Shown here piece after piece: positions 1 to 6,000 of a stretch of 64,000 nucleotides of DNA. The stretch is from IMG/VR virus record IMGVR_UViG_2718218305_000006; one strand, given 5' to 3'. Numbering within the stretch: position 1 is the first letter of the stretch; each line of letters starts with the position of its first letter. The DNA comes from a virus. Lineage: Duplodnaviria > Heunggongvirae > Uroviricota > Caudoviricetes. The position numbers were made by a program.

Positions 1-3000
1 ATGAAGATCGTAAAGGCTGAAGTTTTTGTTACCTGTCCGGGGCGTAATTTCGTCACATTAAAAATCACCACTGAGGACGGTATTACACCATAAATTTTTG
101 GCTTGCTGATTTCTGCACGCATCGATAAGACGGATGAATTCCTCCCGCGAAAGAGGATCCGGAATGGTTCTTGATTCCTTTAATGGCGAGATCCCCTTAA
201 ACGGGTTATCTGCCAGGTAACCGTTATCAACACCAAACTGGAACACGGCGTTAAGATTTGTCATGTAATTATTTACAGTTACAGCCGATCTCCCTGGTTG
301 TGTAACAATATAGTTACTTTTGGGGATCTGGTATCCAGTCAGTAGCTCTTTACGAACCTCCAGTAATTTTTCTTTATTAATCGATGAGGCAAGATTTTTT
401 TCACCGATTATGCTCAGGATATTTTTGATGACGGCACGGTATGTGTTGAGTGATGTTTTTGCGACTTCAGTTTCTTTCAGTGCCAGAAATTTTTCAGCCA
501 GTTCTTTTATGGTTAAATCTTGTCGGGCCTCACCAAATTTTTCCAGATTGCGTGAGGAGGGAAACTGTTTTGCATAGTCGAAAACACCAGTTTTTATTGC
601 GTAACAAACAGAGGCGCGTAGCTCACCTGCAACGCGCCTGTTTTTTGCTGTGTCAGGAACCCCAGGTTTTCCCTGACTCTTACGCCTTTATAAACAAACC
701 AGATACGTAATTTCCCTCCATGGTTTTCCACGCCTGTCGGATATTTCATTTCAACTTCTCTCATTAGTTAGTGTGGCTTTTAGTCAAGTAAGATGACGTC
801 TTGGTCTTGCTGATGCCTGGCGCTCAATCCAGCGATCAATTTCTTCCAGGTTGTAAAAGCATGGACTGTTATCCCATGGCATACCGTCATGAGCGACATG
901 CTTATATTCCCTTCCTTCCATAAACGATTTTTCCCGGGCCTTTTTTAACGTACCTTTTTTTATTCCTTTCAGCGCAATTAACTGCTCTTCGGATACCCAT
1001 TTGCCGGGAGAGACAATCATGATTACTTCGCTCATCGATTTCTTTATCTCTTACATCAGACGAGCGCCGGTTGCAGAATACCAGTCACAACCGGCGACAG
1101 TTGAACATTAAGAATCAGCCTGACTCGGGATCAGTTTTTGCCAGATAGCTGAAACGTATTTTGCCTGGTAACGGGCGTCATCAAGTGCATTATGGCGCTC
1201 ACCTTCGAATGGAATAGCCGTTCTGGCATCGAAGTCTATGGCTTTCCCCAGCTCAACGATTGTGCGTACATCGCGATCGTTGTAGTAACGCCACGGGCAG
1301 GGGCTCCCCTGCCGTTCGTATGAACGGCGCAAAATCGTGTTGTCGAAGTTGGCTCCATTTCCCCAGACATGAACAAAAAATTCACCGGAGTTTTCGTCGA
1401 TAAATTCCCGCAATTGTAACAGTGCATCATCTAACGGGATTTCATCGGTCATAATGGCAGATTGCGCTTCGCGTGATTGTTTAAGCCACCATTTCATGGT
1501 GTCCCGATCAATGACTCCGCCAGCAGTATCCAGATCGATAGTCTTACTAAATTCCGGTCCCATATCTCCGGTTTGCGGATCGAAAAATATTGCACCTATT
1601 GAGATAATCGGGGCATCGGGATTTTTTCCCATGGTTTCAAGATCGATCATCAGATGAATCCCCGCTCTGCTGGTGGATGTGAGATTATGATGACCGTTCG
1701 CCTTAATTAAGGGATCTGACGCCTCGCCAGTTTCACTATCGCTGGCATGATGCTGATTGCCGCCAGTGTTCTCCTTGTGCTGATGTGCAGTACCTTCCAT
1801 TTCCTCCGGATCATTTTCCTGAACTTCAGGCTGATTCTCTCCATCGAATATTTCCTGGTATGTTGCGTCACCCATCACCGCACCACAATCAGGGCAGTTG
1901 CCGCCACCGCTCTGACCGCAGGCGGTGCAGATCTTTTCCGGTTCCTGTTGCACTACTGGTTCAGGTTGTTTCGTTTCTGGCTCGTTTTGTTGCGTATTTG
2001 GGCTGTTTTGTTCCGCTTTCTGGTCGTTCTGTTCCGTTTCTTGCTGGTTCTGGTTCACAGAATCGCGGGTCTGGATCCCCTTAACCCATTTCGGATCATT
2101 CGGGTCGCTAATCCCTTCAACAAATTCACCACGTGATACTGCAAGCAGTTCCTCGGCGTCAGGCTGGCTGATATTGGCTGCCTGCATAATTTTCTTTACT
2201 TCGTCAGCGGTAACTTTTACCGGTTCTGGTTGTTCAGAATTTTGTGCGGTATTTGCATTTTGCGGTAAGCCTGTGTATGTGCCATTTTTTCGGGCAAAAT
2301 ATTCTTCTTTTGTGATTTCAGTAGCCCCGGCAGCCAGCGCCTTATCCAGACCAGAAAGTTTGTTTGCGCGACCGTATTTTTCGCCATCCTTGTCGGTGAA
2401 GAGGAAGTAGAACGGCCCCTCACGTTCTACAGATGGTTCGACTTCCACTTTGCATTCGGTTTTTTCGTTGTCTGGAATTGCCGTTTCCACTGCATCAGTT
2501 TCTGGTACTGGCGACGAGAGAGTATCAGTTGCGCTCTGATTTGTTCCTTCATCTTCAAACACGCCCTTTGTAGTCAGGTATTCAGTAATGTATTTGTTCA
2601 GTGCCACAGGGTCTTTGTGAATGTCGATCGGACGTTCACGGACAAGGCCAAAAATAGTCTGGCGGTCGTAGCGAAGGGCATCAGGCTGTTTGCGCATTGA
2701 TGCCGAGATACGCTTCCAGTCTTCGCGGCCGTTGTCGATAACTTCATTTTTTGCCCAGCGATGGATGCTGCCGTCAATGTTTCCGGCATCCACATCACCA
2801 GGCCAGAGAGCGTAGGCCAGTTCGTCATCCAGTGTTTTCCATGTCTGCTTGTATTCGCGATGAATGGCAGCAATGACCGGGTTGATTTTTCCTGTTGAAT
2901 TTTCAGTGTGCTGTTGATTGGCTCTGGCGCGGGCGAGATCAACAACAGACGTGTATTTTCCGGCTTCCTTGCGTTCACCTTCGCGACGTTTTTTCCAGAT

Positions 3001-6000
3001 GCGCATCTCTGCCTGAATTTCGGGCCATTTGGCACCAGGCTTACATTTATGCTTAACCCACCCGATGGCATGCAGCTTAAGCTCCGGATACATAGCGTTA
3101 ACTTCTGGCATTTTCATCAACGCTTCAACGATATGGCCGTCGAATGTTGCCATGTCTTCCTGCAACAATTCCTGTGCGCTAATCACCATATCAACAGTGA
3201 TGTTTTCACATGTGTCGAACTTAACCATGACAGCGTTCTGTACTTCAGGGGCCAGGTTGTCAAAAGTGACGTTCATCGGATCGGATTCAGTCTCGACCGG
3301 GACAAAGGAAGCAGACGCCTCATCCCAGCGGTTTTCCTGCATATATTCAGCATCCCAGGAATCGAGGGCAGGGCGGGGTATACCGGGTTTATCCTCGCAA
3401 ACAAGAAATTTATAAGCGCAGTCCTGAGCAGCCGGATAATGTTCCAGGAATTGCCAGTGAAATTTTGCGCGGGCGCGACGTTCATCACCGGCTTCAATGG
3501 CAGTGGCTACAGCGACGGCACCTTCTTCCTTTATTGCCTGTTCGTCCGGAATGGCGGCGCAAATAAAGACTTTACTCATTTTGTTTTACCTCATTACAGA
3601 TTTAAGGGTGAACAAATCCCTGCCATTGCTGGCATATAAGAATGAAATCGGATGTTTATTACGGAACTGTTTTAAAGACCTGCCGGGATTTCGTTATTAT
3701 CCTGGTGAATAACTTTATCGACCGGGTAACAGTTACCGGGAATTTTCTGTTCGGTTGCTGCAGTCACACACTCCTGCATTGTCCTGTGAACACTGACTGC
3801 AATATCAACTGGCTCTCCGGAAACAAGAAAAACTGTCAGAACAAGTGCAAATGCTGTATTCATTGCCAGCATCCTTTTTGTATCGGACGTAAACGGGCCA
3901 GCATTGAAAGAATGCATATTTTATTTAATAGCTCCCGTTCGTGTTTTCTCTTGTTAATGGCATCTTCAGTAAATACAGGGTTACTGATAGTGACACCAAT
4001 TTCAAAACAACCTTCAGACGTATTAACGTTTGGTAATAACGTTTCCATTATCGCGTCCTCAACAATGAATTTTGTGATGCGGTGCCTGGTGCCTCCAGGT
4101 GACGTTAACCAGTTAACAATTAACGCCGGATACAGAGAATCCCCCCATAACACTGTTTTTGGTTTTAACTGTTCCGCGTGCGCTCAGCCGCATTCACCGC
4201 ATCACAAAATTCACTTTAAAAAGGGCGGCAGAGCAGTCACGGAGTAAAACTGATACCGCCAAACGTCACCAGAAAATTGATAACAGAGGGCGTTGCAGCG
4301 GGGTTGTCACTTAAGCGTATGGTCAACCTGACAACCCGGTGTCCTCAACGGGGGAAGGAATAACCCCTCCATACTTACCGCCGCGCCATTTCGCGGATTG
4401 CCACAACCGGAAGCGCACGGTCGACGAAAATTTAACGACAGGCTATCTATGAACCAGCTACCTCGCCGTGCGCTTTCGCGTTATGGTCTGACTTTTCAGG
4501 GAAATATCCTTTCAGTAAACTGTCAGTGCCGTATGCTCACCCGTGTCCGGCGCACGCACTCCACCTCACCCGTGGAGAACTCCTTAATTACCAACCCTCA
4601 GGAGGGTGAATGTTAAAATCAACTCTTATTGCTAAATGCCTTTATCAAAATCGCATGGTAAGCAGCATTTCAATAGGCGAGTCTGCAGTTAAAAGTATTT
4701 TCGAAGAGTACTTTCCCGGGCATGATTTTAATAAATGGAATACCAAATTACCGCCAGCAGTTTCAACGCGTATTCTGAAAGCAACCGAAAGAGCAAGTAC
4801 AATTCGCGTTAACTATTTCATTAAAGATTTGTGGGATCTTTGATATCCACAGAGCCTAAAGTATGTGCATATGGATGTGCTATTATGCGCCCTCGCAGAT
4901 TTGCATCATTTTCTAAATTCACTGAACGAAACAGGGCATCAACAAGGCTCTGTACAATGCAAAGGCAATCGAAGACTGTCGCCGTTTCTGTTTTGATTGA
5001 TGAAAGAACATGGCCATTCACGCAAACAGAAATTACCCGTTTATTAACATCGCTTTCCTGCTTTTGATTATCAGAACCATATAGCCCAGAAAAAGCATTG
5101 CGCACATTACGAACCATATTATCGATGGTTTCTTTTTCTGCGGTACTAAGGTCAAGAGTAGCCAGTTGTGAACGAACTATATTCGATGCCATTTCCTGTA
5201 ATGGCGTTGGTAAATCTTTAAATTCCATTATTAGCCTCGTTGGTTAGCTATTAACGTGGGTATGTAATCATTCTGGCAATGCTTAATGCCGCTGCTTTTT
5301 CCAGATTGGTGATATCCTGCTCCAGAGCGGACAGATTTTCAGCCTGCTTAGCCCTGGCTTCATTGGCCCATTTCAGGTCCTGCACCGCCTTAATTTTCTG
5401 GTGCATCCACTCATAAAGTTCATCATCGGTATAGTCTGGCGCGATGATGACGGGGTCTCGTTTCTGCATGTCGGCTCCTTGTGGTTAGCGTTGCCTGCTT
5501 TTTAACCACGTCAGGCGAGGTGGTATCCTCTGAGGGGTCTGTTACTCGAGAGGAAATTGGTTATGAATACAATCAAGTTTTCTTGCCCAGAATGTGGTGG
5601 CTAAGTCTTTGACACATCCTTTAAGCCGCAGGGCTCTGACAGTTTCGCGGGAGCCATCTGCAAAAATTGTGGTCACCTTGTAACTGAAGATGAGTCCTCG
5701 CAGTTCGATGACGAAATCGTTGACAATATCTTCGGTGCACTCACCAGAGACTTTCTGAAGTAAAGGCGCATACCGCTTAGTTACCGCTCTGATAACTCTT
5801 ACCTGTCCGGCAATGGCGCTGATATCAATATAAAGCGCCATCGCTGTTTCTTTGCTGATCCCTGGACGCCTTCCATTCTGATGTTTGACTCGCCCACTGA
5901 GAAATCCTCTGCTTCCCCTTAACGCCGGGTAGCGGAACTGTTTGCTGAGAACACCGTGCGGTGTCTTGATGAGTAGAATTTAGAATAGCCTAAGAGTTAT

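Follow-up and report, generated by a model that had tools for sequence, protein, structure and literature searches.

Tandem lambdoid prophages at the ydfJ site share a diverged int-xis-exo module whose direct copies may recombine

The stretch of viral DNA analysed here (IMG/VR record IMGVR_UViG_2718218305_000006, 64,000 nucleotides; the window) contains two lambdoid prophages, each of which carries a leftward early module with the genes int, xis and exo. The whole is best explained as a tandem pair of lambdoid prophages at the ydfJ attachment (att) site of an Escherichia coli O157:H7-type chromosome, in which the shared early module has diverged and its direct copies may recombine, and we put the probability of this reading at about 85%. 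It is built on features that are observed directly: the anatomy of the prophages, the structure of the att junction, the pattern of divergence between the copies, and natural genomes with a hybrid arrangement. An earlier reading of the DNA (the original prediction) had described two tandem prophages sharing a highly similar 3.5-kb module, 93–3579 and 50915–54377, as a substrate for RecA-dependent deletion or duplication. The tandem arrangement is borne out, as the two are collinear lambdoid genomes lying head-to-tail. The observation is otherwise confirmed in part and its interpretation is largely right, but the locus is well described and the mechanism is a textbook one. The features are listed in Table 1.

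The repeat was mapped by self-BLAST of the window and by global MAFFT alignment in 100-column bins. A same-orientation repeat is real, but only 2.0 kb of the 3.5 kb aligns, at 88.7% identity, and the next 1.46 kb has no detectable nucleotide similarity. The self-BLAST match pairs 85–2127 with 50910–52952 over 2,046 columns with 225 mismatches and 5 gap openings (E = 0), which is far beyond chance, and the two copies run the same way, shifted by a constant 50,825 bp. The alignment check proposed at the outset has in this way mapped the identity blocks and breakpoints, and the similarity over 85–2127, though shorter and more diverged than first claimed, is well above chance level. Between 2128–3587 and 52953–54383, BLASTN gives no match and the MAFFT identity is 31–48% per bin. 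A simple global alignment of this block gives 57.9% identity, compared with 56.9 +/- 0.6% for shuffled sequence; the nucleotide identity being at shuffle level, the block was rejected as a highly diverged homologue. Its alignment score is ~5 standard deviations above mononucleotide shuffles. The block makes up 42% of the 3.5 kb first claimed, and over the whole of the claimed coordinates the identity is ~76%.

Upstream of the exo start codon the similarity returns in pieces. After a short island of perfect identity (Table 1), 3636–3943 is ~50% identical to its counterpart in prophage 2 in the MAFFT alignment, and 3944–4556 (613 bp) is 93.2% identical to 54742–55350, rising to ~99% over 4031–4330. 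This last block holds the 5' part of dicB and the small RNA (sRNA) DicF, so that the dicB/dicF modules do add homology, as had been proposed. In both prophages DicF is recognized on the minus strand by the Rfam family RF00039, and dicB is annotated downstream of it in the matching RefSeq records. The longest perfect runs between the copies are 141, 129, 119, 111 and 99 bp, the one of 129 bp being the longest within the int-xis-exo block. There are 23 perfect runs of at least 25 bp, 16 of them inside 85–2127. Near-perfect stretches occur at 1793–2041 (one mismatch in 249 bp, the best sub-block of 85–2127), at 296–444 (one in 149 bp), and at 4002–4348 in the dicB/DicF block (three in 347 bp).

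The breakpoint at 2127/52952 falls inside the exo open reading frame (ORF), just past a linker of 21-bp repeats. In prophage 1, DNA 1108–2127 encodes the C-terminal part held in common with prophage 2, and 2128–3579 encodes ~475 N-terminal amino acids (aa) that are not. Strong BLASTP identity between the two exo proteins is found only from residue ~478/466 onward, with a weak extension back to aa ~279/305. Judged from these alignments, the central part would have at most a faint remote similarity, and the N-terminal ~280 aa none. The only nuclease domain that Pfam recognizes in either protein is a C-terminal DEDDh 3'-5' exonuclease of the Rv2179c-like type (PF16473), which in prophage 1 is accompanied by a CxxC...CxxC motif and the 7-aa-repeat linker. 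An N-terminal Exonuc_VIII region (PF06630) is present in the prophage 2 protein only. The sharing of exo thus holds for the C-terminal ~345 aa and not for the remainder, and neither protein is a lambda Exo or RecE nuclease. With PF16473 as the C-terminal domain of both, they do not qualify as RecE/exodeoxyribonuclease VIII. For lambda Exo (Red-alpha, YqaJ fold), no YqaJ-type Pfam match was obtained in either protein at E <= 0.01. Identical or related RefSeq records, where small ORFs were not scanned individually, contain no annotated gene of the recT/bet kind between exo and dicB. These proteins were classed as "Exo VIII-type" by Asadulghani et al. (PMC2669165), and the name exo is a loose one for them. 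The low-complexity linker of both exo genes consists of imperfect 21-bp (7-aa) tandem repeats, at 1966–2049 and 52791–52870.

Between the two xis genes there are 24 differences in 252 nucleotides (nt), of which 20 fall at third codon positions, and a single aa difference. In the shared C-terminal part of exo, 130 of 1,020 nt positions and 61 of 340 aa are different. Because the 24 nucleotide differences in xis lie mostly at third positions and change only one residue, the copies are old, diverged alleles that came from two phages and were kept under purifying selection, with no recent duplication. The same module is found at ~90% identity in free lambdoid phages such as mEp460_ev081, Tritos and PhiR42_1. 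The repeat is the conserved leftward early module of a phage group, made up of int, xis, the C-terminal half of exo and, further on, dicB and DicF. Its similarity ends at mosaic breakpoints, one of them inside exo at the low-complexity linker, which is typical lambdoid mosaicism.

The prophages are separated only by an att junction, which lies between the tail-fibre/nleG/insertion sequence (IS)/dinI end of prophage 1 and the int gene of prophage 2, with no chromosomal genes in between. The left arm of the core (AAAAAACATCTAT, following the dinI-like gene) is identical to the attR arm that precedes ydfJ' in strain 7784. The core and right arm (AAGAGTCAT, followed by int) match attL of Escherichia coli O145:H28 strain 12E115, located after the 5' end of ydfJ, and the homology with this attL side starts at 50243. 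In comparison with E. coli O157:H7 strain 9000, identity drops from 50267 on, where 58 mismatches fall within 574 bp. The junction is thus of the P'OP type, with arms like those found at attR and attL of single ydfJ prophages, and therefore the shared integration specificity that had been suggested is supported: both prophages use the ydfJ att site. This site, which adjoins rspAB and ynfA, is that of Qin in K-12. Similarity blocks of the two lambdoid genomes are collinear at an offset of ~50.8–52 kb. The left flank, rspA', is in the window, and the right flank, ydfJ', is known from related genomes (strain 7784) and lies beyond it. In the Sp11-type prophage of strain 7784, the dinI-like protein (WP_001120551.1) also adjoins attR.

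Prophage 1 extends from before position 1 to 50243 and is, by sequence, Sp12/CP-933P of O157:H7. Sp12 has been equated with CP-933P, and Sp11 and Sp12 lie in tandem in strain Sakai (PMC8630535, PMC7645076, PMC7430833). Positions 1–50840 of the window match strain 9000 without gaps, with 5 mismatches in the first 50,266 bp, and the RefSeq annotation of that strain places ynfA on the left flank. The window begins within chromosomal rspA (Table 1), in a piece that RefSeq labels as a partial hypothetical protein in strain 9000. Strain 12E115 carries an intact prophage of the same kind adjoining rspB; there the match resumes, for window 77–5938, at position 7041 of its locus sequence (L005) inside int, and the two matches overlap by 10 bp at the deletion junction. 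The comparison shows a deletion of 2,954 bp. On the phage side it took attL and the catalytic half of the prophage 1 int gene, and on the chromosomal side rspB, the bulk of rspA and the 5' end of ydfJ. In tblastn with the prophage 2 Int, the remnant has 97% aa identity over aa 1–30 and 92% over aa 30–228, with a frameshift near 660 and its end at ~85; RefSeq notes it as frameshifted, incomplete and missing its C terminus.

The module was expected to carry int in both prophages. The gene is intact in prophage 2, but the left-hand int is a frameshifted remnant that stops at codon ~222, before the catalytic domain, and its attL has been deleted, so the left copy is not a complete Int/Xis module. 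Prophage 2 has, by Pfam domains, a lambda-type module with the arm-binding and catalytic domains of Int and an adjacent Xis.

Prophage 2 (50258 to beyond 64000) occupies the position of Sp11 in Sakai but is, from sequence comparison, a different mosaic phage. Set against the Sp11-type prophage of strain 9000, its identity is down to ~90% from 50267 on, which does not fit Sp11 itself; it is high only over 53602–56469 (98.6%) and patchy beyond, at 81–93%. Neither window 44000–56000 nor 50200–64000 has a full-length, full-identity match in any of 5,426 complete E. coli genomes, whereas many O157:H7 genomes hold a nearly perfect match to prophage 1. The phage collection yields only mosaic matches of ~90% with at most 33% coverage. 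The best match to prophage 2 is Balcarce_24.2, at 98.6% from 51924 (the exo stop codon) onward. It was considered as a deletion variant of the locus and ruled out, as its prophage sits at ompW and has another int and xis. The Sp11 position in O157:H7 seems to be taken by varying phages. A hok/sok toxin-antitoxin locus is found in each prophage by the Rfam family sok, at 11392–11694 and 63378–63553, within a block that is 87.6% identical between them (11372–11795 and 63358–63804).

The same 5,426 genomes were surveyed for the state of the locus, with the rspA'::int' junction as the marker. The junction is present in 295 genomes, and in 224 of these the right-hand copy of the repeat has been lost by a deletion of 2,322 bp. 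In this Sakai/9000 type the deletion lies in the right-hand prophage and removes int codons 1 to ~250, xis and the C-terminal part of exo, that is, the right repeat copy. On both sides of the gap, the right-hand prophage of this type is 99–100% identical per 100-column bin to that of FDAARGOS_293. The deletion site is at positions 22653–22665 of the strain 9000 locus sequence (L002), equivalent to window ~50840 and ~53090, and its endpoints share only a short, imperfect microhomology, TCAT..CCATT. Five genomes (FDAARGOS_293, 146N4, Z885, Z887 and F6294) cover at least 80% of window 44000–56000; their annotation places an integrase and an exonuclease, both intact, beside the right end of prophage 1, and so they represent a tandem with an intact right copy. 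In FDAARGOS_293, the one looked at in detail, xis and the 3' part of exo are 98–100% identical to the left copy over ~800 bp (window ~812–1611).

A synthetic recombinant query, window 1–1100 joined to 51926–54500, matches end to end and in one piece in eight O157:H7 genomes (7784, CV261, NZRM3614, Z1835, Z1836, AC-3, AC-5 and NZRM4169). It is covered over 88% in a ninth, Z852, so that there are at least nine single-hybrid genomes. The order in strain 7784 is ynfA-rspA'-int'-xis-exo(814 aa)-dicB, after which come an Sp11-type body, dinI, attR and ydfJ', with no Sp12 at the locus. At informative sites this strain has prophage 1 alleles over 71–1303 and then the right-copy alleles of FDAARGOS_293, with a few patches. 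On sequence grounds, the single-hybrid state is what a homologous crossover within the module would predict. The view of the repeat as a recombination substrate is therefore plausible, with the predicted arrangement found in at least nine natural O157:H7 genomes, but such a crossover would leave a chimera. The derivation of strain 7784 from a sequenced tandem parent in a single clean recombination step was also considered. This was rejected: the left switch fits, but the N-terminal region of exo is a further mosaic.

A RecA-type crossover between the direct copies would loop out a circle of 50,825 bp. From the geometry, the circle would contain a chimeric exo, the body of prophage 1, the P'OP site as attP, and the intact int and xis of prophage 2. 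The chromosome would keep rspA'-int'-xis, a chimeric exo and the body of prophage 2, which would then be without int and attL. The crossover would thus not simply remove prophage 1, as the original prediction had it, and would instead join the dead int stump of prophage 1 to the body of prophage 2. In the reciprocal event, an unequal exchange between sister chromosomes, the unit would be duplicated. In the strain of the window such a crossover presumably happens, at some frequency and probably in dependence on RecA. The near-perfect stretches at 1793–2041, 296–444 and 4002–4348 would be its likeliest sites, because the 11% divergence is expected to depress recombination under active mismatch repair.

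Several points weigh against the favoured reading. Their average identity is only 88.7%, a divergence that, as Shen and Huang in 1986 and Rayssiguier et al. in 1989 reportedly found, strongly lowers RecA/RecBCD recombination when mismatch repair is active. The rate in the strain of the window may accordingly be low, and the window carries no read-level evidence for deletion or duplication. The hybrid arrangement could be ancestral and not derived. The N-terminal region of exo in strain 7784 matches prophage 2 of the window over one kilobase, and elsewhere neither parent. Better substrates may also lie outside the window, and the int-xis-exo module is not necessarily the best in the array: in the lysis region of strain 9000 the two prophages have stretches of 1.85 kb (98.5% identity) and 1.69 kb (99.5%) in common, and the equivalent part of prophage 2 of the window falls beyond position 64000. 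Finally, prophage 2 has no full-length match among complete genomes, and its right end and attR are outside the sequence seen.

The same lysis-region blocks of 1.7–1.9 kb (98.5–99.5%) lend weight to the view that the shared module reflects mere common ancestry and is too diverged to recombine meaningfully, with instability coming from other repeats of higher identity, such as the late and lysis genes and IS elements. The overall identity of 88.7%, the longest perfect run of only 129 bp in the int-xis-exo block, and the presence of the module at ~90% in free phages also fit this view. It is harder to reconcile with strain 7784, which switches from prophage 1 to prophage 2-type alleles inside the module, with the copies of FDAARGOS_293, which are 98–100% identical over ~800 bp, and with the 16 perfect runs of at least 25 bp in 85–2127, which are above the minimal processing segment of E. 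coli. We regard it as unlikely, though deserving of serious weight.

A 7784-type single hybrid might alternatively be the ancestral state, the tandem having arisen when a circular Sp12-type genome entered an Sp11-type resident with a dead int through the shared xis/exo homology. The two copies would then be the footprint of a Campbell-type homologous insertion instead of a pair of site-specific ones. Tandem and single-prophage genomes do have the dead int stump and the rspA' deletion junction in common. With attL deleted, no Int-mediated insertion could occur to the left of the resident, and homologous insertion yields the observed order; the right copy would carry the intact int and attP of the incomer, as it does in the window and in FDAARGOS_293. 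However, the structure is equally well explained if two site-specific integrations came first and the 2.95-kb deletion afterwards, so that the order of events is unconstrained, the P'OP junction is expected under both models, and strain 7784 to the right of its switch point is not identical to the right copy of any tandem genome examined. This history is rather improbable. A recent segmental duplication, or an assembly artefact that places one prophage end twice, would give the same orientation, gene order and constant offset of 50,825 bp, but is already refuted by the divergence pattern (11.3%, concentrated at third codon positions), by exo N-terminal halves without significant similarity, by one int being truncated and the other intact, and by the recurrence of the architecture in independently finished genomes.

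Tandem lambdoid prophages whose direct copies may recombine have close relatives in the literature. Sp11 and Sp12 are reported to lie in tandem with disrupted integrases and not to excise (PMC2669165), and for Sp12/CP-933P in particular the int is disrupted and the prophage non-excisable (PMC2669165, PMC8630535). The window resembles the Sp11-Sp12 pair of Sakai (where Sp12 is CP-933P of EDL933) in its locus, from ynfA/rspA' to ydfJ', and in its head-to-tail order. It also has the same left prophage, as judged through strain 9000 (5 mismatches in 50 kb, with integrases disrupted as reported for Sakai), including the dead int stump and an IS-riddled right end with nleG and dinI. It differs in that the 2-kb repeat is absent from the Sakai/9000 type, owing to the 2,322-bp deletion, whereas the right-hand prophage of the window keeps an intact copy. 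From the att core onward prophage 2 is unlike Sp11, with ~90% identity in int and, beyond 56469, an immunity and replication region that differs.

Yara et al. (2020, PMC7645076) described a compound Sp11/Sp12-like prophage at rspA in which a 50-kb insertion or deletion (indel) between two isolates of one patient was ascribed to homologous recombination. The array is alike in having tandem Sp12- and Sp11-like prophages at the same locus and holds an extra phage, and its event of ~50 kb is of the kind first predicted for the window. Their phage carried stx2a; of prophage 2 the window includes only the first 13.7 kb, which stop short of the region where an stx operon would be expected. Homologous-recombination indels at this locus are thus already published, and the finding is already known. 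Chen et al. in 2013 are said to have distinguished three classes of spontaneous Sp11-Sp12 deletion, at frequencies of ~10^-3 to 10^-4, arising by homologous recombination rather than by Int. The passage of PMC7430833 that cites Chen et al. 2013 (AEM 79:1934) refers to laboratory deletions in Sp11-Sp12. More generally, homology between prophages drives large rearrangements in O157:H7 (Fitzgerald et al., PMC8743559). The transfer of Sp10 to a position beside Rac (Asadulghani et al. 2009, PMC2669165) is alike in that a second lambdoid phage of the same Int specificity enters the att site of the resident (attR of Rac), giving a head-to-tail arrangement with a P'OP-type junction. It is unlike the present case in its site (ompW/Rac), in its different integrase, and in being an experimental transfer and not a natural array.

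Qin itself is another point of comparison, with an early-left order of int, ydfD (DUF1482), dicB and DicF that is like that of the window. In K-12 (intQ-ydfE-ydfD-dicB-dicF) it occupies the same ydfJ integration site next to rspB. JM109, a K-12 derivative, matches the int fragment 85–200 at 97.4%. Unlike the window prophages, Qin, which was not aligned in detail, is single and heavily decayed, with no tandem partner and no intact gene for a large DEDDh exonuclease.

Table 1. Features of the repeat, the att junction and the two prophages in the window
Feature	Position	Strand	Basis
Left copy of the direct repeat as mapped here (int stump, xis and 3' 1,020 bp of exo)	85..2127		88.7% identity to 50910–52952
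Right copy of the true direct repeat	50910..52952		Self-BLAST
First 86 nt of chromosomal rspA, left edge of the 2,954-bp deletion	1..86	+	100% identical to rspA start of O145:H28 12E115 (L005 4001–4086)
Prophage 1 integrase pseudogene, codons 1–30 in one frame and 30–222 in another, without catalytic domain	67..749	-	tblastn with prophage 2 Int
Prophage 1 excisionase, 83 aa, DUF1233	784..1035	-	Pfam PF06806, E = 1.6e-31
Prophage 1 "exonuclease", 823 aa	1108..3579	-	Pfam PF16473 aa 642–813, E = 3.6e-66; no N-terminal Pfam match
48-bp island common to both prophages, just upstream of the exo start codon	3588..3635 = 54384–54431		48/48 identity
Prophage 1 dicB, cell-division inhibitor	3860..4048	-	Mapped from strain 9000 RefSeq annotation; partly inside 93% block 3944–4556
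Prophage 1 DicF sRNA	4223..4274	-	Rfam RF00039, 76.7 bits (gathering score 48)
dinI-like gene, right end of prophage 1, adjoining the att junction	49875..50117	-	Pfam PF06183; annotations
att core GAATTATGGATTTC at the prophage 1/prophage 2 junction (P'OP)	50244..50257		Arms match attR of 7784 and attL of 12E115
Prophage 2 integrase, intact, 424 aa	50301..51575	-	Pfam Arm-DNA-bind_2 PF12167 aa 4–66; Phage_integrase PF00589 aa 201–392
Prophage 2 excisionase, 83 aa, DUF1233	51611..51862	-	Pfam PF06806
Prophage 2 "exonuclease", 814 aa, full-length ORF	51933..54377	-	PF06630 (Exonuc_VIII) aa 57–189, E = 6.8e-33; PF16473 aa 633–804, E = 3.2e-60
Prophage 2 dicB	54658..54846	-	Homology to annotated dicB of FDAARGOS_293 and strain 9000; partly in block 54742–55350
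Prophage 2 DicF sRNA	55021..55072	-	Rfam RF00039, 75.0 bits

Further features were noted in the body of prophage 1. Its immunity region (5251–6512) contains a helix-turn-helix repressor (6105–6512) and small downstream ORFs and is, by position alone, a candidate counterpart of the paaR2-paaA2-parE2 toxin-antitoxin locus of CP-933P (PMC8630535). The paa adhesin gene lies at 10445–11203. The late-regulatory region (16168–16779) has two tRNA genes (Ile and Arg by the annotation of strain 9000), after which come two sRNAs, STnc100 (16510–16718, plus strand) and AgvB (16720–16779, minus strand). At 20668–21881, IS1203 (IS3 family) splits an antirepressor gene, and its frameshift pseudoknot is matched by the Rfam family ALIL at 21484–21600. 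A 162-bp unit is repeated 3.7 times at 97% identity at 30097–30689, giving 54-aa repeats, in a gene at ~28570–31154 that RefSeq annotates in strain 9000 as a frameshifted portal protein. Two NleG-type (DUF1076) effector genes in succession have a direct repeat of ~175 bp upstream of them (43864–44038 and 44741–44906, 87% identity). At 46167–49825, in the interval that separates the nleG7 effector gene from the dinI-like gene, an IS256-family transposase gene is interrupted by ISEc8 (IS66 family).

In strains with an intact right copy, a crossover in the xis/exo module might excise a 50.8-kb circle that is Sp12 with a working int, xis and attP, the 2.3-kb deletion then locking the array. We consider this improbable; if true, it would let a prophage that is considered permanently immobile regain mobility by an integrase-independent route.

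Genes for type III effectors of the nleG family, the paa adhesin gene and regulatory sRNAs lie in the Sp11-Sp12 locus, and gain or loss of ~50 kb at this locus alters the results of pulsed-field gel electrophoresis and single-nucleotide polymorphism typing in outbreak tracing (PMC7645076). To what was published the present analysis adds the exact breakpoints, the int stump left by the 2.95-kb deletion, the att core, the loss of the right copy in most of the O157:H7 genomes, and the natural hybrids. This is added detail and no new principle, and knowing which strains keep the repeated module helps to predict which of them are prone to indels.

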